Below the pieces are notes generated by a model that was not told where the DNA came from, made no database searches, and was given only the letters and a program-made list of their open reading frames with translations. From positions 9 to 64,008 of the forward strand of contig JACOUC010000036.1 in assembly GCA_016178055.1 (NCBI GenBank): a stretch of DNA of 64,000 bases, read 5' to 3'. The position numbers were made by a program, and so were the translations under genes. Source of the DNA: Chlamydiota bacterium. Its GTDB lineage: Bacteria > Auribacterota > JACPWU01. Positions 12,901-63,844 of this stretch are shown piece after piece; positions within the stretch are counted from its first letter, which is position 1, and each line of letters starts with the position of its first letter.

Positions 12901-15900
12901 TCGTAATGGACCTTGTATTTTCTCCATGCCAATGTTGGAGGTCATGATGATGAGGGTGTTTTTGAAGTCGACGGTGTTCCCTTGGCCGTCGGTGAGTTTT
13001 CCTTCGTCGAAGACTTGCATGAGGGTGGTAAGGACGTCCGAATGGGCTTTTTCGATTTCATCAAAGAGGAGAACGGAATAAGGACGTTTGCGGACGGCTT
13101 CGGTGAGTTGGCCGCCTTCTTGGAATCCCACATAACCCGGTGGGGAGCCGATGAGTCTGGATTTTTGATGGGATTCTTGGTATTCACTCATATTGAAGAC
13201 CGTTAAGGCCTGGTCGCTGTCAAAGAGGAATTGAGCTAAGGCTTTAGCCAGTTCTGTTTTGCCTACGCCTGTGGGGCCGGCCATGAAGAAGACGCCCATG
13301 GGACGTTTGCGCTCACCGGGGATAGCCCGGGCACGACGAATGGCTTGAGCGACGGCTTTGATGGCGTCTTCTTGGCCTACGACTCTTTTATGGAGTTCTC
13401 CTTCGATGTTCAAATATTTGGCTGCGTCGTCTTGGTCTAAGGCACCGACGGCCATGCCGGTCATGTCGGCTAAATATTCCTGGACGTCGGCTTGGGTGAT
13501 GCGGATGTCTTTTCTTAAATTGGATAATCGGCTCAAAATAGTATGGTAAGCCTCGAGTATGCCGATCATTTGGTTATGGACTTCGATGACGGTGGGGTCG
13601 GTGTCTGGAACTCCTTCTTTTTTAAGGTCGATGTATTCGTTAATGACGCTGTGGAGACGGTTGAGGAAGTCTTCTTTAGTCATTTCTAGACTGTTCCTTC
13701 GGGCGTTGACTCGGCCCATGGTTCCTTCTAAGACGTCAATGGCTTTGCGGGGTTGGGATTTTTCAGAGAGATAGCGTTGGGCGCATTTGACAGCGGCTTT
13801 AATGGTAGCACGATCTATTTTGAGTGAGAATTTTCCTTCTAAGTAGGTTTTGGCGCCCGTAAGAATGGTTTCTGTTTCCTGGACACTGGGTTCAGGGACA
13901 GAAACTTTGGTAAACCTGTCTTCGAAGGGTTTGTCTTGTTCGATGTAGGCTTTGTATTCAGGGTCTGTCGTGGCCCCAATCACAGTGACTCGCCCTTTTT
14001 CCAGGATGGGCTTTAAGAGGTCTGCGATTCGGGTGTCAATGCTGTTGCTGGGCCCTTTCAATAGGAAATGGATTTCATCGATGAAGAGAATGACGTTGTT
14101 GTTGGTTTTTTCAAGGAGTGGGATCAGTGTTTTGAGGTTGTCTGACATCTCTGAGAGGGTGCTTCCTAAAGCACCCGCTTTAAGGGCAATGATTCTCCTA
14201 CCCTTTAAAGGGCCATCGAGGTTGTTTCGGGCAAGTTTCAAAGAGACGAGTTCGACGAGGGCTGTTTTACCGACTCCTCTGGGGCCGACAAGAACTAAGC
14301 TGTTTTTGATTCTTACTGGAGTGGCCAGACGAGCCATGATGCGGCCGATTTCTTCAGAGCGCCCCACCAATGGGCGAGCGCTGTCAGCTTCAAGAGCGAG
14401 GTCATAGGTATAGTCTTTTAATACCTGCCACTCTTTTTTCTTTTGACCATTGCCTAAATCGACATCTGCGTTCAGTCCTATTCTCTTCAAGTAATCATCC
14501 AGGGGCTCCATCGGAGACTCACCTACAGAGAGTCGAAGGAATGGGACACCGAGGAGATATCCTAAAAGACCTGCAACTACGGTAAACAATAAGGAAGCAA
14601 TCGAAGATCTCCCATTGATCATCGAAGCCCCCCATGGTACTATTTTGATAAAGGAGGCTTTAAAATGTCCGCGAAACTGCAAGAGCTGACGGAATTGATG
14701 GGAGAATTGGAGCCTAAAAGTCTTTCTCGACGAAGTAGAAATGTTGCCAAAGCGCTCTTGGGTAGCTGCCGCGGCCTCATCACGCCTCGAGGTAAGTCCT
14801 CTACCCGGTGGATCCGACAAGAACGTTCCTCCCTCCACAGCAAGGTGAGATAGTTCTGTGCCCTCATTACCAACACTCATTCTCGATACAGATGTCATTG
14901 TCAACTGGCTATCGGAAGAGCTTGAAACAGGAACAGGTCGAGAGTTATGGAAAGCCCCATTTGACATTATCTCTAAAGCAGAAGAAGGTCGCTCTAGTGT
15001 ACTCATTTGTCTTACAACTCTGTTAGAGCTTAGATTTCTCTTGAGGAGAAAGAAACGGCTGAGTGACGCTTCGATTCGGTCTATTATTAATCGAATGTTC
15101 CAAATTATTTCGGTCAATGTTCCTGACAAAACTGAATTGCTCAGGGCCAACCATCTCCAGAGCCTCCATCCTTTGGACCCGTTTGACGCAATACTGCTCG
15201 CTTGCGCCATGTCGTCTGAAGAAGCTATTCTTGTTTCTCGTGACAAGCCACTCCTTCGCATTGCATCTGAATTCCTTGAAGCACTTAACCCTGAAGATGC
15301 CCTCGCCAAAATTTCAAAGTCTTGAATAGCATCAATGCTAAGACGAAAAACCGGAGAGCCAAAAATCCATCCTAAGAGGCCTGTCCCTATGGCTAATAAC
15401 ACAGAACCAATTTTGAGGATGTGTTGAGCATGTGTATGCTCTCCTTTTCCATCGCCATGAGAATGGGTGTGAGCGGGTTTCATCACTATGCTTGAGGTAG
15501 GGCCTCCTTCATTTGAGGATTGAAGAAGTTCGAGGATTTTAAATTCATCGAGCCAATTCCCAATGGCTTCTACGACGCTTACTCCGTCAGGGAGCCTACA
15601 CTCTTCTATAAGTTTTCTTACAGTGGCTTCATCATCGGCCCCCATTTTTCCCATTTCACGCAGTTTTTCAATCAGCCTGGGCGTTAAGGCCTCACGAAAG
15701 CGCTCTTGAGTATAAGCACCGCTATTGATCATTTCATCCAGGGCCTCAGGGACGGCATGGGAAGCAGCATGTTCTGCGTCTTCTGAGTCTAAGTTGCTTT
15801 TGATGTCGGGATTCTTTTCGGCATCTTGAGCAAGTTGCCGCCCGATCCGGCCTAAGATCTGAGTCAATTTCTTCGCCGCTTCGTCTAGTTTTTTCTGAAT

Positions 15901-18900
15901 AAATTCTTCCTTCATGAGAATATTGGCTTGAATCTCTTTAAAAGGCTTACCGTAATGCTGTTCCAGCTCTTTTTGAAAAAGTTTAATAAAAAGGTCCCGC
16001 GTCTTAGGATCAGCCGTTTTTAATCGATCCGCCAGAAATTCACGTAAGGGTCTTTCCTCACACCAGCCCAGGGCACCAAAACCAAAGAATGCAGATATGG
16101 GAGACGTCATTGCGAGGAGCGAGAGCTCCGAAGCAATCCCAGCTTTGCGCAAAACAGAGATGGCTTCGTCGGCTTCACCTCCCTGCAATGACGGCCAAAC
16201 ATAGCTTCCATCCAAAGACGGAAGAGGCAAAAGATTCACCAACCCTAAAGCCAAATTAATTTTGACTCCCCAAATAAGCGGGCCCATTAAAAATCCAAAA
16301 GGCCCAACGGCATTAGCGGCAAGGGCCCCTACCGCAAAGACCACGGCCAAAATTAAATTACTCACCGGCCCCGCAAGCGCTACTTTCTTCATCGAAGATT
16401 CTGAGAGCCGCCAAGAAGAAATAGGAACGGGCTTTAACCACCCGATCGGAATCCCGATCAAAAGCGTAGACGCTAAAAAAGAAATCGTCCCCCAAAAATC
16501 TAAATGCCTCCAAAACCTGAGCAACGTCAATCGCCCCGCCTCCTCAGCCGTCCGATCCCCCAACCTCGCCGCCAGCCATCCATGGGCATATTCATGAAGA
16601 ATCGCGGAGAAGAGAATAATTGCTATCAATGGAACAGCACTTCCTAAAAGGCCAGGGTTGGCCACAAATACAGCGGCAAAAGGAATGCACAAAAAGACAT
16701 AAATATTCTTGACTTGCCCCGGACTTGATTCTATGATTTTTCTCATGAATGAGAAAAAGACTCCAAAACCTATTCCTACTCCAGAAGAAGCCCAGCGATA
16801 CAACTCCGTTATTATTGAGGAGATGAGAAGCCAATTTAAGGTTTTTGGCGAAGGATTAACCGGTTTTAGAAAAGAAACGAATGCACGATTTGACAGACTC
16901 GAAGAAGTCGTTATGGATACGCGTGAACGTGTCTCTAGGGTAGAGAATAGACTCACCAAAGTTGAAGAGAGCAACGCTCGCATTGAATCTGACATTCGCC
17001 TCATCAAAAACCAAATCAAAGTCAAGGTGGATTTAGAAGAATTTAAAGTACTTGAAAATCGGCTTGTGATCGTTGAAAAAAGACTGGCTGCCCTTCCCAT
17101 CTCCGCTTGATTAGCGCTATTTGAAACTCTTCTGGAACCCCCTATACTGCGTATCAAGCCATCCACATCCCCCACATATCCTCCTAATTCCAAGGCTCTT
17201 CTAAGGTAAATTTCTATTGAATGAGCCGTTTGTGCGTGACTCAGGAAAAATCGCATCTGATCTTGCGTGAGCGTAGTCACGCGTTCAAGCCAAAGAAGAG
17301 GGTTTTTCTGCAATTCATCGGAAACTTCCGAACGATTTTCCTTTCCCGCTTTCCTCTCTATTTCTCGAATAACCCCTTCTAAATCTCTCGCCACCTCCTC
17401 CCAATTTTCTAAATTAAGTTCTCGGGCCAAAACCTCTTGATCCCTTTGCCATTGATCAAATTGGAGAGCCGTAAGCCCCGCAGCAAAAGCAGCCTCTTCT
17501 CCCAACGAGCGTATTTCCTCAAGAAAATGAAGCCTCGCGATTTTCTGAAGGGTCGGAAGTGAGGCTTCTTTTAAAGCATCAGGAGCGCCCGAAATAAATC
17601 CAAATTGCTCTTTCATCTTCCTAAAATAGGCGCTGCGATCGTCATGACCCGTCATACGAGGGGCAATGACCCAATAACCGATCTTGGCCTCTTTCAATTT
17701 CTTCGTGATCCCCTCCGTATGAAACCCACCCACCACAAGCGCTGCACAGGGAAGTTTCTTTTCCTGAATTAATTTAAGAGATTTTTCGAACATGATTTTG
17801 TCTCGTTTTAGAACTTGAGTGTAGAATTTTTGGGAGAGGTTAAAGATTTCTCCAAAATCAGGAGATTCATAGTCTATTGCTTCCTTTTTAGCTAATTCGC
17901 CAAGTTGAATTAGAAAATCTCCGATAAAGTCGTTCGGGCCTGCTTGGCTCGAGGCTCGAGGATAATACTTTGCTCGAGGCTCGAAGCTCGAGGCTCGAAG
18001 TAAATGCTTCTCCAGTTTTTGCTTTTGCCTCGAGCCTCGAGCTTCGAGCCGTTTTATGTCTTCCCTACTTCCTTCCATCGCAATCACACGCCTGAGTAGG
18101 TCATAGTCTTTTTCTAACGCCAGCAGCTCTTTCGCCTGAGGCGTTGTCGCCAAATTTTCAACGAGTTCTCCTTCGAGGTTTTTAATTTCTTCATCCAACT
18201 TCTCCCAAGAGATTTGTTTTAGGAGAGACATTTGTTGAATAAGGAGTTGAAGATTGGGATATGGAGCTGATTTCTCGACAGGCTCGAAACGTTTATTAAT
18301 TCTGTTATTGGAGTGCTTCTCGACTGCGCCTCTCGCTCCACTATCGTTTCTCGACGCGTTTCGACTAATGTCGAAACTTGCTTGAAAACTAAATTTATTG
18401 TTCGAGCGTAGTCGAGAACCTTCCTTCGCGTCCTCTACCTCCTCCTGGCCCCTCCTTGTGGTTTGCGCCGTGTTAGGCTCCAACCACTTCCTCGTCCACC
18501 CGCTACGGCGGGTACCCGGACTTGGTCGCAAGGAAGGGAGATTATTTCCCTCTAGCTTCGAGCCTCGAGCCTCGAGCATTCCTAAGTACTTGCTTAGGAA
18601 CAAATAATGCTCTTCATCACTGGTTCTGCCCAGCCGATGCTCTAAGATATTTCTCAAAACTTCATTGAGTTCTTCTTTTGGAAGCTTCTTCTCTAGTTCA
18701 GATAAAAATAAGAGGTATTCAGACTCAATTTTTGATGCGTCCGTTTTCTTTTCGAGTGCTTGGAGTCGAAGGTAGAAATCAAGCTGGGGGTAGTTTTGGC
18801 TCGAAGCTCGAGGCTCAAGGCTCGAGGAGGAAAGAGGAAGAGATTTATTTTCTACATTTTCAGTTTTTCCTTTTGTCTTTGCTTTTGCCTCGAGCTTCGA

Positions 18901-19887: not shown

Positions 19888-20069
19888 GACAACCCCTCTC
19901 GATCTTGAAAAAATCAATAATGACTGCAAGCTTACATAAGTAAAGACACTTTGGGGACTAGAAATGTAAAAATAAAAATTTAGAAATTTCCATCTCACAA
20001 TTGATAAAGGAAGGTTTCTTATAGAATAACCAGCTATTCCTTCAAGCCCTTACATAATGATTTCCTCTA

Positions 20070-24255: not shown

Positions 24256-24618
24256 ATGAATTCTCAAGAGTTAAAAACGAGGACTAAACTGTTTGGACTT
24301 AAAATCATTCTTTTGGTTGAAAAATTGCCACGTTCAAAAACATTGGATATTATAAATCGTCAACTTCTACGCTCTGCAACATCCATCGGGGCAAATTATA
24401 GAGCTGCATGTCGTGCAAGATCCAAAGCGGATTTTGTGTCAAAAATTGGCATTGTCGAAGAAGAATCCGATGAATCAGTTTATTGGCTTGAATTGCTTAT
24501 AGAAACTAAGCTGGTTACTGATACCCAAATACATGTCTTGCTTAAAGAAGCAAACGAGTTAACAGCGATCTTTACCGCAACAGGAAGAACTACAAAAGAA
24601 AAACAGAAAAATGAATAA
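24256..24618 (+). CDS. Four-helix-bundle protein (23S rRNA intervening-sequence protein family)
   Basis: LPRSKTLDIINRQLLRSATSIGANYRAACRARSKADFVSKIGIVEEESDESVYWLELL fits the family pattern. ATG at 24256; the track start 24244 is a TTG inside the repeat arm. Confidence 0.8.
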   Translation: MNSQELKTRTKLFGLKIILLVEKLPRSKTLDIINRQLLRSATSIGANYRAACRARSKADFVSKIGIVEEESDESVYWLELLIETKLVTDTQIHVLLKEANELTAIFTATGRTTKEKQKNE

Positions 24619-26113
24619 ATCCGAGATTCGAAATCCGAAATCCGAAATCAAGAGGCTTTCCCTCGAATCCCTTGCCCAAAATGCCCTCGATGAGGCTATT
24701 TCGCTTGGAGCTTCCTACGCCGATGTCCGATTAATTGAATCCACCAGCCGAAATCTGGCCACCAAAAATGGAGTTCCAACCAGTTTGGATATTGAAGAAT
24801 CGCAAGGCCTAGGAATCAGGCTTCTTTATCATGGGGCCTGGGGATTTGCGGCTACGCATGATCTTTCAAATGAAAATGTATTACGGACAGCCTTTAAAGC
24901 CATTAAAATTGCTAAGGCCAGCGCCCTCACAAAAAAAGAGCCTGTTCGACTGGCCGAAGAAAAACCGATTCAAACAGAATGGTCCAGCCCCTTCTCCATC
25001 GATCCTTTTTCAGTTCCTATTGAAGAGCAACTTAATTTTTTATTACAAATCGATGAAGAAATCAGAAAAACCAAAGGGATCAGCATCTCTGAAACATCCA
25101 TGCATTTTCATAAAGAACACAAACTTTTTCTCTCGAGCGAAGGAAGCCGTATTCTCCAGCACTTTATCACCAGTGGAGCAGGGTTTGTTGCGATGGCTTT
25201 TCGAGATGGAGAATTGCAAAAACGTTCTTACCCTAATTCCTTTGGGGGACAATACCAAAAAAAGGGTTATGAGCTCATTCAAGAGCTAGAACTTCTCAAA
25301 AACGTTCCAAGAATCGCTGAAGAAACCGTTCGCCTTTTAGATGCCCCCAGTTGCCCTGTTGGAGAAAAGGATCTCATTTTAGACAGCTCTCAACTCGGTC
25401 TTCAAATCCATGAATCGGTTGGACACCCTATTGAGCTCGATCGAGTGCTCGGAAGTGAGGCCAATTACGCCGGAAAAAGTTTTCTTACGCTAGATCAATT
25501 AAAAACCCTTCAGTACGGATCCCCTATTGTTCACGTCGTCGCTGACGCTAGACTTTCACATGGTCCAGGTCTCGGCACGTTTGGCTATGATGATGAGGGC
25601 GTCCCTGCACAAGGAACGGATATTATTCGAGAGGGACAATTTGTAGGCTATCTCTCCTCTCGCGAGACCGCTCAAGATATCGGCGAAACACGCAGCAATG
25701 GAACCATGCGAGCTGAAAGCTGGAATCGGATTCCATTAATCCGCATGACCAATATTAGCCTCATGCCAAAAAATTGGGACTTTGAAAACTTAATTGCAGA
25801 CACAAAAGATGGAATTTATTTAGAAACAAATCGAAGCTGGAGCATTGATGATCGTAGGCTCAATTTTCAATTTGGAACTGAAATAGGATGGGAAATTAAA
25901 AATGGCAAGAAGATGAATAGGGTCAAAAACCCAATTTATTGGGGAATCACACCCGAATTCTGGAACGCCTGCGATGCCATTTGTAGTGATCGATATTGGA
26001 CGCTCTGGGGAACTCCCAATTGTGGCAAAGGACAACCCTGCCAAACCATGGGAACAGGTCACGGTTCTAGTCCAGCTAGGTTTCGCGGGATAAAGGTTGG
26101 AGCCAGTCATTGA
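24611..26113 (+). CDS. tldD: TldD-family metalloprotease
   Basis: 500 aa. The HESVGHPIELD (HExxxH) motif and overall TldD/PmbA architecture are present, and it pairs with the PmbA-like gene downstream. The only in-frame start lies inside the cassette arm. Confidence 0.8.
   Translation: MNKSEIRNPKSEIKRLSLESLAQNALDEAISLGASYADVRLIESTSRNLATKNGVPTSLDIEESQGLGIRLLYHGAWGFAATHDLSNENVLRTAFKAIKIAKASALTKKEPVRLAEEKPIQTEWSSPFSIDPFSVPIEEQLNFLLQIDEEIRKTKGISISETSMHFHKEHKLFLSSEGSRILQHFITSGAGFVAMAFRDGELQKRSYPNSFGGQYQKKGYELIQELELLKNVPRIAEETVRLLDAPSCPVGEKDLILDSSQLGLQIHESVGHPIELDRVLGSEANYAGKSFLTLDQLKTLQYGSPIVHVVADARLSHGPGLGTFGYDDEGVPAQGTDIIREGQFVGYLSSRETAQDIGETRSNGTMRAESWNRIPLIRMTNISLMPKNWDFENLIADTKDGIYLETNRSWSIDDRRLNFQFGTEIGWEIKNGKKMNRVKNPIYWGITPEFWNACDAICSDRYWTLWGTPNCGKGQPCQTMGTGHGSSPARFRGIKVGASH
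24617..24649. repeat. Right heptamer-repeat arm of the four-helix-bundle cassette
   Basis: AAATCCG AGATTCG AAATCCG AAATCCG AAATC. Translated as the first residues of TldD (KSEIRNPKSEI). Confidence 0.8.
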
Positions 26114-26119
26114 CAAGAA

Positions 26120-26178
26120 GATCTATAAACGCGGATCTAACGCAGATCTATAAACGCAGATCAAATGCGGATCTATTT
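26120..26178. repeat. Left repeat arm of the GxxExxY cassette
   Basis: Tandem GATCTATAAACGCG / GATCTAACGCA / GATCTATAAACGCA / GATCAAATGCG units, complementary to the right-arm units GATCCGCGTTT. Confidence 0.75.
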
Positions 26179-26655
26179 ATGGCTATAGAAGAAAAATTGC
26201 TGTATCAGGAGATTACATATGAGATTAGAGGAGCGTGTTTCTGGATATGGAAGGAATTCGCAAGTGCATTCAAAGAATCTATCATTGATAAAGCCCTCAC
26301 GGAGGAACTCAAGAAAAGGGGACTTAAGGTTGATAACCAAAAACACATAGACATTTTCTACAACAAAAAGAAAGTAGGAACTTATATTCCTGATAAAGTT
26401 ATCAATGATTGTGTGCTCGTTGAACTCAAAAGAAAACCTTTTTTACTACGGCAAGATAAAGAACAATTGTGGCATTATTTAAAAGGATCCGAATACAAAT
26501 TGGGTTTGCTAATCAACTTTGGAGAAAACGAACTAGAGTTTGAACGCATCGCCTACGACACTAAAAGAAGATCAAAGAGAGATCAGCGCCAGATCCGCGT
26601 TGCAGATCCGCGTTTGATCCGCGTAGTAGATCCGCGTTTGATCCGCGAACAATGA
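26179..26655 (+). CDS. GxxExxY protein (PD-(D/E)XK-like family)
   Basis: MAIEEKLLYQEITYEIRGACF... and LGLLINFG are typical of the GxxExxY family. The C-terminal 25-30 aa (IRVADPRLIRVVDPRLIREQ) are read from the right repeat arm. The track start 26110 is a TTG. Confidence 0.75.
   Translation: MAIEEKLLYQEITYEIRGACFWIWKEFASAFKESIIDKALTEELKKRGLKVDNQKHIDIFYNKKKVGTYIPDKVINDCVLVELKRKPFLLRQDKEQLWHYLKGSEYKLGLLINFGENELEFERIAYDTKRRSKRDQRQIRVADPRLIRVVDPRLIREQ
26581..26650. repeat. Right repeat arm of the GxxExxY cassette
   Basis: Five units of (CA)GATCCGCGTTTG type. The arm ends at the ATGA stop/start overlap with pmbA. Confidence 0.75.
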
Positions 26656-27992
26656 AAATACTCAAAGAGAAATCTGAACAAGTTTTTGATACGGTTTTCA
26701 AAACCAGTCAGGCTGATGAAACTGAAATTCATTTTAACTGGATCACCCATGCCCTCACCCGGTTTGCCAATAACGAGATTCATCAAAATATGGGGGACGA
26801 AGATATTGAAGTTTCGATTCGTTCATCCTTTGGAAAAAAAACGGCTCGGGTCACTACGAATAAAACGGACATGGAATATCTCAAAAAAATGACCCAGTTG
26901 TCAAATCATCTGGCTTCCCTAACCCCTGAGGATCCCGACCTTCTTCCCATGCCAGGGCCCCAAACTTATCCCACAGTGAAACACGCTTATGAAAGAACAG
27001 ATCACATCAAAGCTGAAACCAGAGCTCGTGCGGTTTCAGTCCCCATCAAAATCGCACAACTAAAAAATCTGACTTGCGCAGGTATTTTCGCAAATGATCT
27101 CACACGTCATGCCCTTGGAAATTCCAAAGGACTTCGAGCCTATTCTGAGGAAACCTACGCTGTTTTTTCAACCACCATGATGGATAACAAACTAGGTTCA
27201 GGTTGGGCAAAAATGGGTCACCCCGATTCTACTCAAATCCCCGTCGAAACCTTGGCCTTACAGGCTTCTGAAAAAGCTATTTTAAGTAAGAATCCGATTG
27301 ATATTTCTGCAGGTGCTTACACCGTGATTCTCGAACCCTCTGCTGTGCTTGATCTCCTTGAATTCATGCTTCTTGATTTTGGAGGACTTTCCGTTTTAGA
27401 ACAAAGGAGTGCCTTTACAGAAAAATTGGATAAAAAAATTTTTGGTTCAAATATTACTTTTAAGGATGATATTTATCACCCCTTACAATCAGGAGCCCCC
27501 TTTGACGGTGAAGGATTTCCAAAAAAGCAAATTGAGTTGGTCCAAAATGGCATTTTAAAAAATTTGGTCTATAGCCAATCAAGCGCTCTTCGCTCTCAAA
27601 AAAAGCCTACAGGCCATGGATTTCCGGTTCCCAACGCTTATGGAGAAGCACCCATGAATTTCGTCATGAACGGGGGAAACTCCTCCCTCAAGCAAATGAT
27701 TGAAGGAACGGATCGAGGGCTTCTCATGACTCGTTTCTGGTATATCCGTGAAGTCGATCCCATGCAAAAAATCTTGACGGGAATGACAAGAGATGGGACT
27801 TTTTTAATTGAAAATGGCGTTTTAAAATCGGCCGTTAAAAATTTAAGATTCAACGAAAGCTTATTTCATCTATTAAATAATGTGGTTGAATTAGGACCCA
27901 GTGTCCGTGCCTCTGGAGAGGAAGGAATGGATATGATTGTCCCTGCTTTAAAAGCGAACGATTTTCACTTTACAAGCAGTACTAAATATTAA
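26652..27992 (+). CDS. pmbA: PmbA/TldE-family protein (TldD partner)
   Basis: 446 aa with the TldD/PmbA-family fold pattern but no HExxxH motif. It lies downstream of tldD. Confidence 0.75.
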   Translation: MKILKEKSEQVFDTVFKTSQADETEIHFNWITHALTRFANNEIHQNMGDEDIEVSIRSSFGKKTARVTTNKTDMEYLKKMTQLSNHLASLTPEDPDLLPMPGPQTYPTVKHAYERTDHIKAETRARAVSVPIKIAQLKNLTCAGIFANDLTRHALGNSKGLRAYSEETYAVFSTTMMDNKLGSGWAKMGHPDSTQIPVETLALQASEKAILSKNPIDISAGAYTVILEPSAVLDLLEFMLLDFGGLSVLEQRSAFTEKLDKKIFGSNITFKDDIYHPLQSGAPFDGEGFPKKQIELVQNGILKNLVYSQSSALRSQKKPTGHGFPVPNAYGEAPMNFVMNGGNSSLKQMIEGTDRGLLMTRFWYIREVDPMQKILTGMTRDGTFLIENGVLKSAVKNLRFNESLFHLLNNVVELGPSVRASGEEGMDMIVPALKANDFHFTSSTKY

Positions 27993-56701: not shown

Positions 56702-59700
56702 CTACGCCTTTACCGCAGCCAAGTCATACATCTGACGCGTTGCTTTATATTTTTCCTCGTCTAATTCTTCTTTCTTAAGATGCACGCTATAGGTCTTCAC
56801 TCCTTGTCCCACCTCTTTTGCCTTAAACCGTTTTGCAAGCTCTGCATTCATTGCGCTCAATTTATCAAACATCGTTTGATCAAGCTGGATATCAATCGCA
56901 TCGCCCAGTATGAGTTGATTCAAAATTTTCGAGTAAATAGATTGATGGCTGGGGTCGATCACAACCTGAATATTTTGAACTTGTAATCCCATTAAACCCT
57001 TCGCCTCAGCCGCTTTTATAATATAATTTTCCATATTTTCAGGGCTTGCCTCTTCTCGAGTGGGTGCCTGCTCAAAAATAATTCCTTCATTTCTAAATCT
57101 CAACAAAACTTCGGCTCCAGGAATTTTCTTATCAACCAATGCCTGAAGGCCACCGATCTTACCTTCATGGTCAACCAATACTATTTTCATTTGGCCTTGA
57201 CTCTGACGCATCTGGGCCGCTGCTTTTACTAAAACTGCAATTGAAGCCTCAGCCCCAGGACGAGCGATATTATTACCATCCACAAGAGTCGAAAGATCGA
57301 TCAGCAAAAGCGCCGGAGCTCTATCCAGTGCCTCTGGTCTGTCCATAAAAAGTCCACGAACAACTCCCTCAAGCGCTTCAGCCTTAGACGCTTCAAAACG
57401 ATTCGCAGATGTTTTCCGGATTGACTTCTGAAGCAATGCAAATTGTTTAACCGAGGTCTCAAATTTTTCAATTTGGAATATGACATTATCCGGAGACTTT
57501 CCTAAGGCTGTTAATATCAAGGGTAAATATTGCTTAATAAATTCTCTCTGCTCAGCACGATCATCTCCAATCACAGCTTGAAGGGCATCTAGATCCATTT
57601 CTCGAATTTCATTCCAGAGAAATTCTACTTGAGTAATATCAGTCCAACCATTTTCAATGATTTGAAGGGCCCAGGCCAATATATGACTGACACGAGCAAG
57701 ATCTGGTAACTCCCCCAACCCCTCTTGAACCAAGAGGGGAGTCCCTCCTACTGAAGTCTCTCCCCTTTCTTTTAAGGGGGAGCTGGAGAGGTTACTCTCC
57801 ATCCAATTTTTAATAAATATTTCCATCTTTTCATGCTGAAGAGCAATTTTTTTATCTTGGGCATTCCTAGAAATAAATATATAGAGCTTGCCATCATTCC
57901 CATAGCAGTGATAGGCCCCGCCGACCGTCTTTAAAATATCTTTTAAACCTGGAAACAATTTTTCCAGATGAGGATCATTTTCATCATAGTTCACTTCCTG
58001 ATACGTTGTAACCCCTCTAACTCCCCTTAAACTAAGGGGAGAGCCCGTCTCCCTTCCCGATTCAAGAGTAGCCATCTCCCCTCTTGGTTCAAGAGGGGTT
58101 GGGCGAGTTACGTTCTTTAACTTACTTAAATAAGGGTCGCCATCATCAATTGTCACCGTCCGACTCTTACTAATTTTTTTTAGATTTACTGCAAATTCAA
58201 TCATCTTTAATTCCTTATCACGACTCAAACTCACTTGATGATGCACCAATTTCTTACGAGCTCCGCCGCTTCCTGGCGTACCAGAGCCCGGAGGTGTTTT
58301 GGAGCCTGAAATTCGGGCGAGCCATCGGACGAAGGGAGATTGCGCAAACGCTTCAACCTTAAGCCAAGAAATTCCTGCCAATGTTGTATAAATTAGACTT
58401 TTTCGAAAGGTTAATTCCTCTAATGCCCTTTCCCTGAACCTTGATTCATAAGCGTTTAACTCGTCCATATTAATCTGCATAGTTCGCATAGGTTCTGGCA
58501 TGCGCCTATTTAAAGTTTCTATGACCCGATGCTGAAGAGATGCCCGCATTTCAGACGTTTCTGCTTCAACTCTTTCGAGAAATGCAGTGTCTTTCTCCCT
58601 CATTTTTCTTTCATGAAGTAGTGTCAACCCTTGTTTTCCATATTTGATGACCTCTAAAGCCGCCGCCCCTATGTGAGCTGCAAGGACAGCGATGCTATAT
58701 TCACGAGTTTCTCCACTATATCTTGCTCTACGCTGGACAAGTCTCTCTTCTAAAATAGGCTCTAGTTCATCTATCAAATCTGGATTGCTTATAATCCACT
58801 GCATCAAGTGCCATTCTGAAATTTCATGAACACCCACTTCGTCACGTTCTTCCATTTTAAGGTTTCGACTCATCCAAATTTCAACACGATTCCTTTCAGC
58901 AACTTTAATCACCGCATCATTTCCTTGAAGTTTATCAGCAGGCACCAAATAACAGCTTAGTTCGGCATCTTCACCCAAAAAGTTTTTAATCTGTTTATAA
59001 GGAAAAGATGGAATTAAAAATGACTCGTACTTATTTGACTCTGCCGGCTCATGAAGTGAGGGAAGACCCATCTCACCCTGAGAAGAACGGCTTTGATCGG
59101 CCCTTTGACCCGTAGAAGTAGTTGTAGAAACTGCATGAGCAAGCGTACCAAAAGCACCCGCCACCTCTGGAGCCAAAACATCATCAACGATTTCGATGTC
59201 AGGTGAAATTTCCTCTGGTAAAACAATGTCTAATTGATCTAGGGCCTCTGAAGTCGACATTCTCTGTGTAACGTCCTTCGCGAGAAGTCCTCTGAAAAAA
59301 GTTTGAAGATCGGAATTCAATTTTGAAAAAGCTGCTTCATATTGTCCATCAAAGGGATCGACATTTGTCACCTTTTCACGCCCTTTTACTGCACGACCTT
59401 GCCCCGTGGGCACTTCTCTATCCATGACTCGAAAGGGACTTGTGTTTAAAAGGGACATATATAAAATAACCCCCAGTGCAAAAAGATCACTTTTAAAACT
59501 GAAATTGCCATCATAAGTTTCTGGAGACATATAGGTAAGAGAGCCAATAATGAATCCGGATCGAACCTTTATTTCAGGAGAACCCGCAGCCCCAAAATCG
59601 ATCAGGGTCATTTTGTTTGTTTTAGGATTATAAAAGAAGTTTGCAGGCTTAAGGTCTCGATGGACTAAATTTAGGCCATGAACTTCTTCCAAGGTTTTCA

Positions 59701-62700
59701 GCAGCTCTTTAAAAGCCGTCAAAATATTATTCTGAAATGTTTCATATGTTAACTCTCCACTCACCAGTTGAGTTCGAAGGTTATGAACATATTGATCCCA
59801 TCTGATTGTCCCTTCTTCTTGAGTTACATCATCCATTGCAATGAATGAATCCCCATTTTCTAGAACACCAAACTCACGAACCGCAGGGTCTGGATTGTTT
59901 GGAAGGTCATGTACTTGTTTCTGAATTTGAGCTTCTCTTTCAGGGGTTGGGAGATAATGATAATCATCCTCTGGGCGAGGCGAAATAATTTTTAAAGCTA
60001 CGTGCTCGTTAGCATTTGTATCCAGAGCTCTAAAAACAGAACCTTGACCTCCTTCACCTAACTTCTCCAAAATCTGATAGTGACCCATGACTGTTCCAAT
60101 CTCATAAACATGTCTAGGTGTAGAAGGTGAAGCAGAGGGCGACAATCCACTCTCCCCTTCAGGAGCAGGTTCTTCTAGCAAGGCTTCGACTGGGACTTCA
60201 GGTCTAGCTAAAAAAGAGGAAGCCTCTGCCTCAGCCAAAATAACCGGTGTTATTCTCTCTAACTCATTCAAAGCCTGAGCGGCATTTTTGAATCTTTGAC
60301 TCACATGCTGATCTAGAATTTGTCTTATATAAGACATCAAGGGAGGAGAAATAGAAGCAATATCTTGTCCCTGAAACGCATCATTACCCAATTTCTTCGT
60401 TGCAATCACAACTTCTACATCTCCTGGAGCAATGCCAAAGGGAAAAGAAGCAGCGATCATATTAAAAAAGATTACGCCAGCAGAATACAAATCTGATTGA
60501 ACCGTTCGTCTTGTCTCAGGAGCTGCGTATAAGAAAGAAAGCTGCTGAAGGGCTTGTTCTTCTTCCGTCTCACTTGTTGAAGAACCAAAATCAAGGAAGG
60601 TGATTTGATGCTTAGAGGCATTGTAGCGTATATTTTCAGGTTTAAGGTCATTGTGTAATATCCCCCGAGCATGAAGTTCACCCAAAGCAGTCAGTAAAGC
60701 TTTAAAAAACGTTAGCATCTCTTGCATGTATACATCTCTTGAAAGAGTTCCTTCATCCATCCCATCTTGTAAGCGTACAATATAATCCTGAAGATCTTCA
60801 TCTTGATTAAAGTCCATCACAAGAAAATGACGTTGGCTCCCCTGATCATAACCATATCCATAAACTGAGGGGGCAGGTCCTCCATCGCGGGATGCAGATA
60901 ACTGACGTTGATATTCTTGCTCAATTTTTCTTTCGGCATCCTCAGCTCCCTCTTTCATCCACTTAATAGCACGTACATTGCCATCAACATCCTTAGCCTC
61001 CCAGGTTTCTGCAGTCGTTCCTTCACCTAATTTATTTACTAAGCGATAGCGACCATCAATAATCGTTGCCCCCTGACGATTCCATTGACTTAACACTTCA
61101 AAAGCTTGGACTTCAGCATTCAAAGCTTCTAAGGCATCATTGATATTCCAATAAAGCTCATCCAGTTGTTTTCTATCTTCCGCCGAAAGTTGAGCCAAAG
61201 CATCTCTTGCACTAACAAAATCATTCACTAAATTTGCTTCGCTCAGATTTAACGACGTCACCTCATCAGGTGAGGCAGAAGATAAATCTTCCCTCCATCC
61301 CTCAACTTGATTCATTGCCTCAGCAATACGATTCCGTAGAGAAAGCATTTGAGACCGAAGCGTCTCTTCTCCTTCAGACCCAGCCAATTCAGGAGACGGA
61401 GCTTCTTCTCCTCCACCAGCCAATTGAAATTCATCTAAAGAAGCGCTGTTAAAATCAATTCTCAAAACGGGCAGAAGATGATCATAAGTATGCTGATCTG
61501 GCGAAGACAAAACCTGCTTCAAAATTGCCTTTCGTTGCTGGTGAATTCCTGTTTCTAATACAGGATCATTTAATTGGTTTAAAATAGATCTCAAGTCCTG
61601 ATCACTTTCAAGAAGTCCTAAAAATTCGACATATCGCTCATCGATTCTTTTCAAGGAGGCCCCGCTCCCTTTCGGAAGTTTCCGAGCTCGATCAAGGAGA
61701 CAATCCATCCAAAAGGCTGAAACAGCATGAGGAGTAAGCGTCTCCACAAAAGTATTCCCTAAAACGCCACGAGCAAGAACCTGTAAGGGTGCTTTAAAAG
61801 GTTTCATTCCCTTTTCACTGTAAGGTCTAAATCGAAAAATGAGGGGCTCCCCTTTTATTAATCCAAATACAAGCCGGGCCCCTTCTTCATCCAAAGCACT
61901 ATATAAAATTTTAATCCCTTCACGATCTCTATCTTTTAACCACTGCGCTAATTCAGGATTTTTCTCTCTCCGCTTACGCGCATAAGCAAGCGTTGCTGCC
62001 GTCAGAGCAAATTCAGCCTTAAAATCATCTCCCACTTGCGTTTTTCTTCTGGGATCCGTGCTGATAAATCCAATGCCATCCTCTAGAGCAAGCATTTCTC
62101 CAATCCCCTTTAGATCTTCAGCCGTCAACGCATATTCTGGATCGCCCATTCTCTTCAGATAAAGCTGATAAGCCTCTTCAATAGAGTCCCTCGGAATCAC
62201 AGGAGAAATCACATGATAGGAAATATTTTTTTGTTGAAAGAATTTTTCCAAACCAGGGGTATGATAACCCCCAACCATCAGAACAGCACTCTTAACATTT
62301 TTTTCAGAAAACGAAGCCATGAAATTTTTGGCGATTTCTCCATCGCGAGATTTAATAGTTTTGTAATATTGCTCATACAATGGAAAATATTTTTTCAATG
62401 GAGCACTATCTTCGCCCATAAACTGCTGAATTTTATCCCAGCCCAAACGCTCAATCGTTTCCTCAACAAGCGTTAAGTCATCTTCACGACCTCTTAATTC
62501 CGCCATTCTTTTAAGGGCATAGAGCCATTCAAAAATAATTGCGGATTTATCAGAAATAAAACTCAGTTTAAGATTCTCTTCAATCTCACGAATTTCTTCC
62601 ATCAATTGATTGTCATTAATTTCAGTTCTAAACTGATAGGCCTGAATCGAACGGTCAATATTAGGGTAATCTTTTAGATTAATTTCTGAGCGCTTAGAGA

Positions 62701-63754
62701 AATCAATCAGAGCCAGATAATATTCATTAATTGAAAGCTCATTCATTCGATATTGAAGCGTCAGTTCAAGTAATTGAATGAGATCCTTTCGGGATAATTC
62801 ATCACCTAAAACATCCAGAAGCTTTCTCTCCTCATCTCCCAAGAGACTTGGATGAATTTCTTTTTCCATTTCAAAGTAATGAAGAACGTTTACATAATTT
62901 CGGATTTTGGATTTTGGATTTTGGATTTTTAAGGAGATCTGTAAATCGCTTAAAGCCTGGCAATAATCAAAAAGGCTTAATTCGTGACGAACATATTGAT
63001 CATGAAATTTAATCAATGAAATAAGTTGAGAGTTTTTTGCCTCGAGCCTCGAGCCTCGAGCCTCGAGCTGCTTTATTAATTCCTCTAAAACGGGCAGGAC
63101 TTCATCCTTCACCTTTAAAACATCTAAAAAGAGTTTCTTATTTTTTAAATAGTAAAGAGGCGTTTCAATTCCATAGAGAAGTGGATTGGACTCACTTGTA
63201 ATGGCATAAAACTCAGGCCCATTGAGCTTGGCATTTTTCATCAAAAATTCTGCAGTATCTCGGCGGATTTCTGGATCTGGAAGATTCTTAAAATAAGAAT
63301 AATCAAGGGCGCCACTGGCGCCTTCAAGGGCGATGAGAAAGCTGGAGCTTCGAGCTTCGAGGCTACTTTGGCTCGAGGCTCGAAGCTCGAGGCTCGAGGT
63401 AAATACTTTCTCAGTTTTTGCTTTTGTTTCTGCTTCGAGCTGATTTTCAATAATTTCCAAGATCCTGGCCATTCGCCATTGGACTTCAAAGTTCCCGTGG
63501 GCGTCTTGAAGGAGATAAATGGTTTTTGCATCTTTATCGGGAGAAATCCAGCTTCGCTCAATCCATCCTAATTTTTGAGGAATATAAAAATCTATATTTT
63601 TACCGAGAGAAGAAACGGAAGCAGGATTAAAGGGCAGCGTTTGCGCAAAAAGACTCTGGGAAGAGAAAATCATATCTTTCTCTATCAAAGAGAATGCGAA
63701 GGCAACCGTCACCCCAATACGGATCAATTTTATAAATAATGTTTCTCTTTTCAT
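56702..63754 (-). CDS. Giant multidomain ORF3 (2350 aa). Order: signal/TM, ChaN/TraB-like N-domain, 2x Ser/Thr kinase, unknown modules, shared C-terminal domain.
   Basis: Uninterrupted ORF. N-terminus MKRETLFIKLIRIGVTVAFAFSL. It lies 100 nt upstream of ORF2 on the same strand. Confidence 0.8.
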   Translation of the reverse strand: MKRETLFIKLIRIGVTVAFAFSLIEKDMIFSSQSLFAQTLPFNPASVSSLGKNIDFYIPQKLGWIERSWISPDKDAKTIYLLQDAHGNFEVQWRMARILEIIENQLEAETKAKTEKVFTSSLELRASSQSSLEARSSSFLIALEGASGALDYSYFKNLPDPEIRRDTAEFLMKNAKLNGPEFYAITSESNPLLYGIETPLYYLKNKKLFLDVLKVKDEVLPVLEELIKQLEARGSRLEAKNSQLISLIKFHDQYVRHELSLFDYCQALSDLQISLKIQNPKSKIRNYVNVLHYFEMEKEIHPSLLGDEERKLLDVLGDELSRKDLIQLLELTLQYRMNELSINEYYLALIDFSKRSEINLKDYPNIDRSIQAYQFRTEINDNQLMEEIREIEENLKLSFISDKSAIIFEWLYALKRMAELRGREDDLTLVEETIERLGWDKIQQFMGEDSAPLKKYFPLYEQYYKTIKSRDGEIAKNFMASFSEKNVKSAVLMVGGYHTPGLEKFFQQKNISYHVISPVIPRDSIEEAYQLYLKRMGDPEYALTAEDLKGIGEMLALEDGIGFISTDPRRKTQVGDDFKAEFALTAATLAYARKRREKNPELAQWLKDRDREGIKILYSALDEEGARLVFGLIKGEPLIFRFRPYSEKGMKPFKAPLQVLARGVLGNTFVETLTPHAVSAFWMDCLLDRARKLPKGSGASLKRIDERYVEFLGLLESDQDLRSILNQLNDPVLETGIHQQRKAILKQVLSSPDQHTYDHLLPVLRIDFNSASLDEFQLAGGGEEAPSPELAGSEGEETLRSQMLSLRNRIAEAMNQVEGWREDLSSASPDEVTSLNLSEANLVNDFVSARDALAQLSAEDRKQLDELYWNINDALEALNAEVQAFEVLSQWNRQGATIIDGRYRLVNKLGEGTTAETWEAKDVDGNVRAIKWMKEGAEDAERKIEQEYQRQLSASRDGGPAPSVYGYGYDQGSQRHFLVMDFNQDEDLQDYIVRLQDGMDEGTLSRDVYMQEMLTFFKALLTALGELHARGILHNDLKPENIRYNASKHQITFLDFGSSTSETEEEQALQQLSFLYAAPETRRTVQSDLYSAGVIFFNMIAASFPFGIAPGDVEVVIATKKLGNDAFQGQDIASISPPLMSYIRQILDQHVSQRFKNAAQALNELERITPVILAEAEASSFLARPEVPVEALLEEPAPEGESGLSPSASPSTPRHVYEIGTVMGHYQILEKLGEGGQGSVFRALDTNANEHVALKIISPRPEDDYHYLPTPEREAQIQKQVHDLPNNPDPAVREFGVLENGDSFIAMDDVTQEEGTIRWDQYVHNLRTQLVSGELTYETFQNNILTAFKELLKTLEEVHGLNLVHRDLKPANFFYNPKTNKMTLIDFGAAGSPEIKVRSGFIIGSLTYMSPETYDGNFSFKSDLFALGVILYMSLLNTSPFRVMDREVPTGQGRAVKGREKVTNVDPFDGQYEAAFSKLNSDLQTFFRGLLAKDVTQRMSTSEALDQLDIVLPEEISPDIEIVDDVLAPEVAGAFGTLAHAVSTTTSTGQRADQSRSSQGEMGLPSLHEPAESNKYESFLIPSFPYKQIKNFLGEDAELSCYLVPADKLQGNDAVIKVAERNRVEIWMSRNLKMEERDEVGVHEISEWHLMQWIISNPDLIDELEPILEERLVQRRARYSGETREYSIAVLAAHIGAAALEVIKYGKQGLTLLHERKMREKDTAFLERVEAETSEMRASLQHRVIETLNRRMPEPMRTMQINMDELNAYESRFRERALEELTFRKSLIYTTLAGISWLKVEAFAQSPFVRWLARISGSKTPPGSGTPGSGGARKKLVHHQVSLSRDKELKMIEFAVNLKKISKSRTVTIDDGDPYLSKLKNVTRPTPLEPRGEMATLESGRETGSPLSLRGVRGVTTYQEVNYDENDPHLEKLFPGLKDILKTVGGAYHCYGNDGKLYIFISRNAQDKKIALQHEKMEIFIKNWMESNLSSSPLKERGETSVGGTPLLVQEGLGELPDLARVSHILAWALQIIENGWTDITQVEFLWNEIREMDLDALQAVIGDDRAEQREFIKQYLPLILTALGKSPDNVIFQIEKFETSVKQFALLQKSIRKTSANRFEASKAEALEGVVRGLFMDRPEALDRAPALLLIDLSTLVDGNNIARPGAEASIAVLVKAAAQMRQSQGQMKIVLVDHEGKIGGLQALVDKKIPGAEVLLRFRNEGIIFEQAPTREEASPENMENYIIKAAEAKGLMGLQVQNIQVVIDPSHQSIYSKILNQLILGDAIDIQLDQTMFDKLSAMNAELAKRFKAKEVGQGVKTYSVHLKKEELDEEKYKATRQMYDLAAVKA
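57719..58106. repeat. Two inverted pairs of perfect short hairpins inside ORF3
   Basis: CCCCTCTTG-AAC-CAAGAGGGG (57719..57739) with CTCCCCTT..AAGGGGGAG (~57759..57782). In reverse-complement order, CTCCCCTTA-AAC-TAAGGGGAG (58029..58049) with CCCCTCTTG-GTT-CAAGAGGGG (58086..58106). Confidence 0.75.
59225..60082 (-). other. ORF3 block: Ser/Thr protein kinase domain 2
   Basis: LGEGGQGSVF, VALKII, HRDLKPANF, IDFGAA, SLTYMSPE. Confidence 0.8.
60260..61051 (-). other. ORF3 block: Ser/Thr protein kinase domain 1
   Basis: LGEGTTAETW, RAIKWM, HNDLKPENI, LDFGSS. Confidence 0.75.
62902..62929. repeat. In-frame (GGATTTT)x4 heptamer tract
   Basis: Translated as KIQNPKSKI in ORF3. Confidence 0.85.
63039..63068. 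repeat. In-frame (CCTCGAG)x4 tract
   Basis: GCCTCGAGCCTCGAGCCTCGAGCCTCGAGC, translated as LEARGSRLEA. Confidence 0.85.
63341..63441. repeat. In-frame palindromic (GCTCGAG)n hairpin element
   Basis: Arm 63371..63398, loop TAAATACTTTCTCAGTTTTTGCTTTTGTTTCTG. Translated as LEAETKAKTEKVFTSSLELRASSQSSLEARSSS. Confidence 0.85.
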
Positions 63755-63844
63755 ACTCCTTCTCTAACTCCCCCATCTCCAAACTCCCAATTTAAAGATA
63801 CGATCGAGATGGACATTTCCAACATAAAAAAACCTCTTTTTTGT

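Follow-up and report, generated by a model that had tools for sequence, protein, structure and literature searches.

The closest described relatives of the element reported here are the BoxC/PIT/TM(ECO) repeats, a G/C-rich motif that is abundant and highly conserved in more than 260 genomes, that has been linked to local genome instability, and that, when paired in inverted orientation, always combines one type A with one type B copy; their description reported no mobility genes and mentions neither ycjD nor any nuclease (Holder et al. 2015, PMC4666352). We analyzed a 64-kb stretch of a Chlamydiota metagenome-assembled genome (MAG; contig JACOUC010000036.1, hereafter the window), in which an earlier reading of the letters, hereafter the sequence-only reading, had noticed pairs of hairpins inside one open reading frame (ORF), ORF3. 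We consider it highly probable that these hairpins are units of a BoxC/PIT/TM-type triplex repeat family and that two doublets, each made of a type A and a type B unit, have been inserted in frame into ORF3. What is new is that the copies are intragenic and translated, that they form a new sequence family, and that they occur in a new phylum.

The window units resemble the BoxC/PIT/TM repeats in their class II layout (a pyrimidine arm, a loop, a purine arm, a short loop, and an antiparallel purine third strand) and in being G/C-rich, about 35 to 40 nucleotides (nt) long, arranged singly or as inverted A+B pairs, and without known function. They differ in sequence, reading CCCCTCTT(G/A)...GGGGAG-TTA where the E. 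coli type, TMECO, reads CCCTCNCCC...GGGNGAGGG, and T.A-T triads and a terminal TTAC or TTATG are part of the window-type unit. The TMECO consensus (CCCTCNCCC N3-6 GGGNGAGGG N3 GGGNGAGGG) is not matched by the window units, and this difference from the E. coli consensus indicates a sister G/C-rich TM family rather than TMECO itself. They differ also in location, TMECO repeats being "always intergenic" in strain MG1655 whereas all four window units lie inside ORF3 and are translated; in host, which here is a Chlamydiota MAG, unlike the published TM hosts; and in company, as published TM work found no mobility gene whereas genes of the DUF559 nuclease family are recurrent neighbors of the repeats studied here, with E. 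coli ycjD standing next to BoxC-like, TMECO-type repeats.

Several other systems are similar in part. Rickettsia palindromic elements (RPE; Ogata 2000, as presented in PMC3184786) and intragenic REPs (PMC3733652) are likewise palindromes that lie in frame within genes, are tolerated as extra peptide, and are missing in orthologues; RPE, as that account presents them, are 100 to 150 bp long, lack a mirror tail, and have a different host range, and the likeness is one of behavior, with none in sequence expected. The REP/REPIN-RAYT systems (Bertels & Rainey 2011, PMC3116915, PMC3337134) also combine gene-less inverted doublets, the likely replicative unit, with a few unit-flanked nuclease genes, but RAYT is an HUH tyrosine transposase whereas the candidate enzyme here would be DUF559, and the terminal tag differs. 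The multicopy palindromes of Geobacter (Aklujkar 2009, 2010; PMC2700814, PMC2996986) include C-rich ones such as CCCCCTCCCGTCAAGGGGAGGGGG, and many of the genome matches listed in our search are from Geobacter, but those papers give lists only, with no triplex anatomy and no DUF559 link, and their palindromes are possible members of the present family. Finally, gene-altering programmed inversions (PMC9881135) share with ORF3 the inverted repeats within coding sequence; unlike them, ORF3 has no recombinase gene among its neighbors of at least 150 amino acids (aa) in the window, no open frame when inverted, no observed variant, and repeats that belong to a multi-copy family.

The units, the doublets that they form, and the host coding sequence are as follows.

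57706..57795, minus strand: left doublet, A reversed plus B' forward; 90 nt or 30 codons, ORF3 aa 1987-2016 (..SSSPLKERGETSVGGTPLLVQEGLGEL..)
57706..57741, minus strand (mRNA sense): unit A-left, class II triplex-type; left arm of a 36-nt inverted repeat
57760..57795, plus strand: unit B'-left, a decayed type B
57796..58007, minus strand: stretch of native ORF3 coding sequence that separates the doublets; aa 1917-1986, the N-terminal half of an uncharacterized domain (GAY..YIF..HExxE..W)
58008..58111, plus strand: right doublet, B reversed plus decayed A plus A forward; 104 nt, ORF3 aa ~1882-1916 (..TRPTPLEPRGEMATLESGRETGSPLSLRGVRGV..)
58008..58041, minus strand: unit B-right, class II triplex-type, with a perfect hairpin
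58045..58071, plus strand: decayed third A-like copy (58051-58071), from a 27-nt tandem duplication in the right doublet
58078..58111, plus strand: unit A-right; right arm of the 36-nt inverted repeat
56702-63754, minus strand: ORF3, the gene hosting all four hairpins; 2350 aa with two Ser/Thr kinase domains

Both copies of hairpin A (CCCCTCTTG-NNN-CAAGAGGGG) are perfect, the one at 57719-57739 having an AAC loop and the one at 58078-58098 a GTT loop, and hairpin B (CTCCCCTTA-AAC-TAAGGGGAG) is perfect at 58021-58041. The inverted A-B/B-A family seen in the sequence-only reading is genuine and not a product of chance, but its left B copy (57760-57782) is imperfect, with an 8-bp stem, one bulged G, and a 6-nt loop, and the right pair, placed at 58029..58106 in that reading, spans 58021-58098. 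Hairpin A forms the core of each arm of the 36-nt inverted repeat (57706-57741 and 58076-58111), and the arms are complementary at 35 of 36 positions. Unit A-left runs through a pyrimidine (Y) arm CCCCTCTTG, a GTT loop, a purine (R) arm CAAGAGGGG, a TTG turn, and a tail GGGGAG-TT to a final AC, and as a string its strand reads CCCCTCTTG-GTT-CAAGAGGGG-TTG-GGGGAGTTAC; in B-right, a GTT loop joins Y arm CTCCCCTTA to R arm TAAGGGGAG, and a TTA turn, the third strand GAGGGG-TT, and AC follow. The corresponding order is CCCCTCTTG, GTT, CAAGAGGGG, TT, tail GGGCGAG (one mismatch), and TTAC in A-right, and CTCCCCTT, loop TCTTTT, AAGGGGGAG (with the bulged G), CT, tail GGAGAGG, and TTAC in B'-left. In the right doublet, 58045-58068 and 58072-58095 are the two copies of the 27-nt duplication (79% identical), and in the left doublet the hairpins face each other. 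Both doublets are bounded by GTAAC...GTTAC and lie 212 nt apart in opposite mutual orientation; their ends, GTAAC(C/T)C...G(A/G)GTTAC, pair imperfectly when examined as the terminal inverted repeats of a miniature inverted-repeat transposable element. The hairpins are read through in frame in ORF3, as the sequence-only reading stated, giving TPLEPRGEMA, SPLSLRGV, SPLKERGETS, and TPLLVQEGLGELP.

A genome-wide search for the hairpin, which the sequence-only reading had proposed, proved decisive. Scanning one genome per species (185,579 species) for exact matches to CCCCTCTTG-NNN-CAAGAGGGG recovered at least 120 loci in several phyla, and the matches listed include Geobacter, other Desulfuromonadales, Patescibacteria, Nitrospirota, Gammaproteobacteria, and Myxococcota. 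The flank ...G-nn-(A)GGGGGAGTTA(T/C), for which the scan did not select, is present in 99 of the 124 matches listed and is identical to that in the window; the flank consensus is C-hairpin-G-nn-AGGGGGAG-TTA(T/C), with GTAACTCCCCC-AA-hairpin as its window counterpart. Among the matches listed, a B-hairpin unit (CCTCCCCTTA..TAAGGGGAGG-nn-AGGAGGGG-TTA) often adjoins the A unit in inverted orientation, and most units are intergenic and close to gene ends. Profile hidden Markov models (nhmmer) trained only on these foreign genome loci match exactly the four window units across the 64 kb and nothing more, with E values of 3.5e-9 for A-left, 1e-6 for A-right, and 1.8e-5 for B-right and a weak hit to B'-left (E 1.8). 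Within the window, 2 sites match pattern A when up to 3 mismatches are allowed, versus 0.03 expected (0 of 100 shuffles gave 2), and there are 2 distinct strict hairpin-plus-third-strand motifs, whereas 100 Markov simulations averaged 0.01. Judged on these sequence comparisons, the hairpins are members of a dispersed palindromic repeat family and not chance palindromes. The sequence-only reading had argued that absence of the hairpins from relatives would mark them as chance palindromes; they are indeed absent from the closest orthologue, P0002, but that conclusion fails since the hairpins are copies of a dispersed family. Rfam holds no family for the region 57000-58800 at E values of up to 10 (the best hit, manA-II, scores 21.7 bits versus a 100-bit threshold), ten related loci gave no match at Rfam gathering thresholds, and a literature search by repeat sequence strings returned unrelated primers only.

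The full unit, CCCCTCTTR-N3-YAAGAGGGG-N3-GGGGAGTTA, was also observed in 31 stretches of phage contigs (IMG/VR viral contigs, L206-L236). There it stands directly upstream of many different genes, with the ATG of its tail frequently serving as the start codon, and it looks like a reusable intergenic cassette. We considered whether the ATG after GGGGGAGTTATG is the start of one conserved gene and rejected this, as in the genome loci selected by hairpin it mostly opens only a few codons; the idea of the ATG as a start codon held only for DUF559 genes and phage genes.

Along one strand, a unit has a pyrimidine arm and a purine arm separated by a 3-nt loop, then a 2- to 3-nt turn, and finally a purine tail that mirrors the purine arm and ends in TTA(C/T). 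The unit types are as follows.

Type A: CCCCTC arm, GAGGGG purine arm, GGGGAG tail
Type B: CTCCCC arm, GGGGAG purine arm, GAGGGG tail
Further types: CCCCCC/GGGGGG, TCCCTC/AGGGAG, and CTCCTC/GAGGAG

Exact parallel complementarity between tail and 5' arm holds for 81% of 203 units, with at least five covarying types, versus a mean of 36% and a maximum of 45% when arm-tail pairings are shuffled (2000 trials); the 203 units are related by descent, and these counts are not independent events. We scanned the window for class II motifs defined as a Y domain, a loop of 1 to 6 nt, an R domain, a second loop of 1 to 6 nt, and a reverse-Hoogsteen domain, with at least 8 triads (G.G-C, A.A-T, or T.A-T) and at most 1 mismatch. 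In the strict scan, 57708-57739(-) and 58010-58041(-) each combine a 9-bp stem with 3-nt loops and show 8 perfect consecutive triads, and the other two units are slightly degenerate, with one mismatch at 58078-58111 and one bulge at 57760-57795. By their letters, the window units thus conform to the definition of a class II purine-motif intrastrand triplex (PMC4666352), a potential fold in which a single strand could form the hairpin with the tail lying antiparallel in its major groove, held by G.G-C and A.A-T triads, and in which the TT of the terminal TTA could form T.A-T triads with the AA beside the loop. Both window doublets pair a type A with a type B unit. The A tail equals the B purine arm and the B tail equals the A purine arm, a reciprocity that may explain why doublets are always A+B.

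The insertion history was read from relatives of ORF3, which is deposited as MBI1870668.1, "protein kinase [Chlamydiota bacterium]". A word-indexed protein search with its C-terminal 650 aa gave no match; an exhaustive HMMER protein search with ORF3 recovered ORF3 itself, P0002 as the closest relative, and more distant giant proteins. P0002 (2688 aa; Chlamydiota MAG GCA_016178005.1, locus L121) is collinear with ORF3 from N to C terminus, with 34% identity over 2143 columns. Opposite the left doublet it has only KFKGKTFPQGW, opposite the right doublet it has a gap of ~44 aa, and it carries a doublet of its own at L121:11091-11211, where ORF3 has none. The lack of both ORF3 doublets in P0002 and the presence of its own doublet elsewhere indicate lineage-specific, in-frame insertions. 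Additional read-through units are present in the next giant gene of L121, and a giant ORF in another locus (L076), homologous to the N-terminal regions of ORF1 to ORF3, contains two read-through doublets. ORF3 stays open after removal of the 90-nt left doublet, and at the right doublet a deletion of 102 or 105 nt preserves the frame.

These relatives also bear on the claim of the sequence-only reading that the hairpins bracket a conserved module. An alignment of 13 copies shows that the domain around the doublets consists of GAY..YIF..HExxE..W, a variable linker, and RAAHILAW..QI..GWT..FL, a combination that no Pfam family matches; copies lie in ORF3 (aa 1928-2057), ORF2 (aa 2920-3049), P0002, P0003, P0008-P0010, and P0012-P0014. 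The left doublet occupies the variable linker and the right doublet lies just upstream of the domain; since the domain runs through the left pair, the two pairs do not delimit a module. The segment between them (57796..58007) is homologous and collinear in P0002, ORF2, P0003, P0008-P0010, and P0012-P0014. The similarity between ORF3 and ORF2, on which the bracketing claim had drawn, is real but weak (blastp among the three ORFs of the window, 29% identity, E 5e-7), and most of it lies outside the hairpin bracket (z 11-13), the part inside scoring z 3.5. A single composite insertion of the whole 406-nt segment, with 212 nt as its cargo, was also rejected: P0002 and 11 further copies of the domain contain a homologous, collinear counterpart of the cargo, and 406 cannot be divided by 3. 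We likewise rejected the 212-nt segment as a degenerate DUF559 gene, to which it has no similarity (tblastn, Pfam). No decayed element is visible at the paralogous ORF2 linker. The domain itself recurs, at times in several copies per protein, among the giant proteins encoded by Chlamydiota MAGs and by other uncultured bacteria.

Under the insertion reading, two A+B doublets would have entered ORF3 in opposite orientation, one in the domain linker and one just upstream of the domain, presumably by a copy-and-insert process. They would persist because whole codons are added and the frame used is stop-free, and they would be translated as short Pro/Gly/Arg/Glu-rich loops. Such copies would be passengers with at most side effects, for example local DNA instability, mRNA structure, or extra surface loops, and the 36-nt "inverted repeat around a module" would be a mere consequence of two copies facing each other.

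Several points weigh against this reading. The right doublet measures 104 nt from GTAAC to GTTAC, which is not a multiple of 3, and target-site duplication is not evident at either doublet, the orthologue being too divergent to define the empty site or the boundaries. Two copies lie within 400 nt, which has a chance of ~1% for two independent random events in 64 kb; local hopping, site tolerance, or a single complex event would each fit the close spacing. There are zero further copies in the window beyond the four units, and we infer the multi-copy status of the family in the source genome from the relatives L121 and L076; related Chlamydiota-type loci have several units per 8 to 28 kb. With regard to the triplex, TM repeats adopt this structure on a single strand in vitro, none was detected in vivo, and in E. 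coli they showed neither promoter nor terminator activity (PMC4666352).

To look for a protein partner, we clustered the ORFs near the 124 units among the matches listed. DUF559 (PF04480, E 1e-34), a Vsr-like PD-(D/E)xK nuclease of 110 to 130 aa, is encoded within 150 nt of hairpin A at 8 loci, and no other family recurs next to tailed units across unrelated genomes; in the genome loci L001, L027, L050, and L059 its gene is embedded between units. Other ORF clusters of 4 were rejected as spurious ORFs across the repeats, orthologous Dehalococcoidia loci with tail-less hairpins, or signaling proteins. In a reverse test on 80 metagenome loci (L122-L201) chosen by DUF559 protein similarity alone, a C-rich hairpin was present within 110 nt of the DUF559 gene upstream in 69 of 75 loci, downstream in 64 of 72, and on both sides in 55 of 67, versus 26 of 794 control windows (3.3%). 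The flanking is oriented, with type A preferentially upstream and forward and type B preferentially downstream and reversed; the start codon of the DUF559 gene is the ATG of the tail ...GAGTTATG in 43 of 77 loci, and its ORF usually ends at a TAA within the downstream unit. In E. coli MG1655, the DUF559 gene ycjD (L205:3030-3860) ends within a C-rich hairpin, and BoxC-like/TMECO-type repeats occupy the gap between ycjD and fabI. The envM (fabI) region of E. coli is where BoxC was first described. Literature mentioning DUF559 held nothing relevant to repeats, and in it we found no description of a link between the two. By analogy, the flanking of DUF559 genes by units in ~90% of these unselected loci suggests, without proving, a partnership like that of REP and RAYT.

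Two further observations concern the units beside DUF559 genes. Unit tails (..GGGGGAGTTAYGA..) occur in 2 to 5 tandem reiterations upstream of some of these genes (L137, L170, L176, and L125), which, together with the duplication at 58045-58095 in the window, points to slippage at the TTA end or to repeated insertion there. More divergent DUF559 genes (L175, L177, L192, and L200) are flanked by an E. coli-like motif, CCCCTCTCCC..GGGAGAGGGG..GGGGTGAGGG, and not by the CCCCTCTTA type, which hints that nuclease lineage and repeat type covary.

These associations lead us to a tentative proposal, to which we give appreciable but clearly less than even weight: the BoxC/PIT/TM repeats may be the cis-elements of a selfish system with DUF559 as protein partner, organized like REP/RAYT, and the ORF3 doublets may be non-autonomous colonists of tolerant linkers. 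Such a system would comprise a few nuclease genes, each between an upstream type A and an inverted downstream type B unit, and many gene-less A+B doublets across many phyla and in some phages, and the DUF559 nuclease would be the best candidate for the mobilizing or targeting enzyme, by analogy with REP and RAYT. A Vsr-fold nuclease able to spread a selfish DNA insert is known in I-Bth0305I (PMC3239194), with which Vsr and DUF559 are grouped in PMC3424549; I-Bth0305I differs from DUF559 in being intron-encoded, larger, and associated with no palindromic repeats. Speaking against a simple form of this proposal, there is no DUF559 gene in the window or in L076, L121, or L202 (a sister MAG, described below), and the 31 phage-contig stretches, with units before many unrelated genes, contain zero DUF559 genes. 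The phage contigs indicate that DUF559 is not a universal partner and weaken a strict reading of the units as termini of a DUF559 element.

The TTAC end of the unit recalls the target of IS608, and the units might instead be of REP/REPIN type, mobilized by an IS200/IS605-family tyrosine transposase (RAYT) and not by DUF559. In favor of this, the palindromes are short and end in a conserved tag, they form inverted doublets, and elsewhere they are mostly intergenic near gene ends; REPs inside genes are also documented (PMC3733652). We nevertheless regard this explanation as unlikely: the tag is GTAAC/GTTAC, not GTAG or CGTC, the mirror tail is not a REP feature, and the ORFs beside the 124 units listed include no Y1 transposase and do include DUF559. 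Quite unlikely, too, is a functional mRNA element, in which the hairpins or an A:A' and B:B' duplex would be selected for ribosome pausing, RNase III cleavage, or segmented translation of ORF3. The RNA structure that the sequence-only reading envisaged is indeed predicted: the 436-nt region has a folding energy of -176 kcal/mol (z -7.9), the two doublets pairing with one another in long-range A:A' and B:B' helices, single hairpins reach -13 to -18 kcal/mol, and each doublet can also close on itself, the left one as a closed two-hairpin structure and the right one at -48.8 kcal/mol (z -3.7), all in predictions that consider Watson-Crick pairs only. The position of the unit directly before start codons on phage contigs would also fit a role in mRNA. 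The unit positions are not conserved between orthologues, however, and we therefore read the long-range duplex as a by-product of two copies and not as evidence of function: the orthologue lacks the units, and where other giant genes have them the positions are unrelated, so that no conserved position speaks for a conserved role. In addition, the E. coli relatives lack terminator or promoter activity (PMC4666352), and the tails in ORF3 end in TTAC, with no ATG.

Programmed intragenic inversion, in which the 36-bp inverted repeats would flip a 334-nt segment and thereby recode or shut off ORF3, is highly improbable, although the near-perfect 36-nt inverted repeat within coding sequence invites it, inverted repeats in genes are known as switches (PMC9881135), and a truncated ORF3 in the inverted form could in principle be an off state. 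Inversion of 57706-58111 introduces several stop codons, the first at aa 1917, and leaves no alternative open frame; inversion of the inner B-B segment gives stop codons from aa 1931. Pfam scans of the window ORFs of at least 150 aa found no recombinase or invertase gene, and a multi-copy family is the mark of a mobile element rather than of a switch according to PMC9881135. The sister MAG GCA_016196915.1 (L202) matches the window at 99.9% identity across 17.3 kb, with 15 single nucleotide polymorphisms, no gaps, and the same orientation, and only two of these polymorphisms (57853 and 57973) fall within 57706-58111, both outside the units; as a comparison of two consensus assemblies, this is a weak test of switching, though one that speaks against it. 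The inversion envisaged in the sequence-only reading thus finds no support here. We give practically no weight to selection at the protein level for a recurring linker peptide xPLxxRGE. The four peptides are similar (TPLEPRGE, SPLSLRGV, SPLKERGE, and TPLLVQEG), but the A copies, identical at 35 of 36 positions as DNA, differ in reading orientation and frame (TPLEPRGE versus TPLLVQEGLGE) and are therefore a DNA-level and not a peptide repeat; the linkers are unrelated among homologous domains, and identical DNA units are mostly intergenic in other phyla. Palindromes that arose by chance, or by local template-switch mutation, and that have no relatives elsewhere would agree with the lack of a further copy in the window, but the low expectation of matches given above and the recurrence of the extended 36-nt unit across phyla, with its unselected flanks conserved, leave this explanation virtually no room.

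Apart from the four units, we observed two other repeat-like features in or next to ORF3. A different hairpin family is represented at 63345-63390 (ORF3 aa ~111-137) and at 8867-8914 in ORF1, with GAGCTTCGAGC... and AAGCTCGAGG...CCTCGAGCTT; the copy at 63345-63390 encodes SSLELRASSQSSLEARSSS, a 27-aa segment missing in the orthologue P0002, and is probably another in-frame repeat insertion. A solo, hairpin-less, tail-like GGGGGAGTTA at 63765-63774 (-), after TTGGGAGTTT, lies 10 nt upstream of the ORF3 start, and may be a remnant of a unit at the position that units take before DUF559 or phage genes, or may be due to chance (~0.1 expected).

The window as a whole has a GC content of 42.5% and is part of a cluster of giant genes, with a 19,623-aa gene upstream of the ORF3 orthologue in GCA_016178005.1 (L121:1-9853). 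The other giant ORFs of the window are as follows.

3931-19998, minus strand: ORF1, 5355 aa, with ClpB-like AAA+ and GT4 glycosyltransferase domains
35563-56601, minus strand: ORF2, 7012 aa, with two kinase domains

A gene for a 181-aa PD-(D/E)XK nuclease (PDDEXK_3, PF13366, E 1e-27) at 26110-26655 (+) stands between two TldD/PmbA-family peptidase genes (24611-26113 and 26652-27992), with a 4-nt overlap with each; it looks like a selfish gene within an operon and has no triplex units close by.

In this study, we characterized hairpin pairs in a giant-gene cluster of a Chlamydiota MAG that are very probably an ordinary insertion of repeat elements, and they should be annotated neither as an inverton nor as a domain boundary. 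Triplex-motif repeats, which have been described as strictly intergenic in E. coli, can evidently occupy genes when whole codons are added, and in bacteria with genomes made up largely of giant ORFs such intragenic copies recur. The G/C-rich intrastrand triplex repeats, beginning with BoxC in 1992, have long been without an explanation of their origin and function, and DUF559 is among the commonest uncharacterized nuclease families. The oriented association of the two at ~90% of loci is a testable lead that they belong together, and if the selfish-system reading is true, it would give the BoxC/TM repeats and DUF559, including YcjD, both a function and a mechanism.

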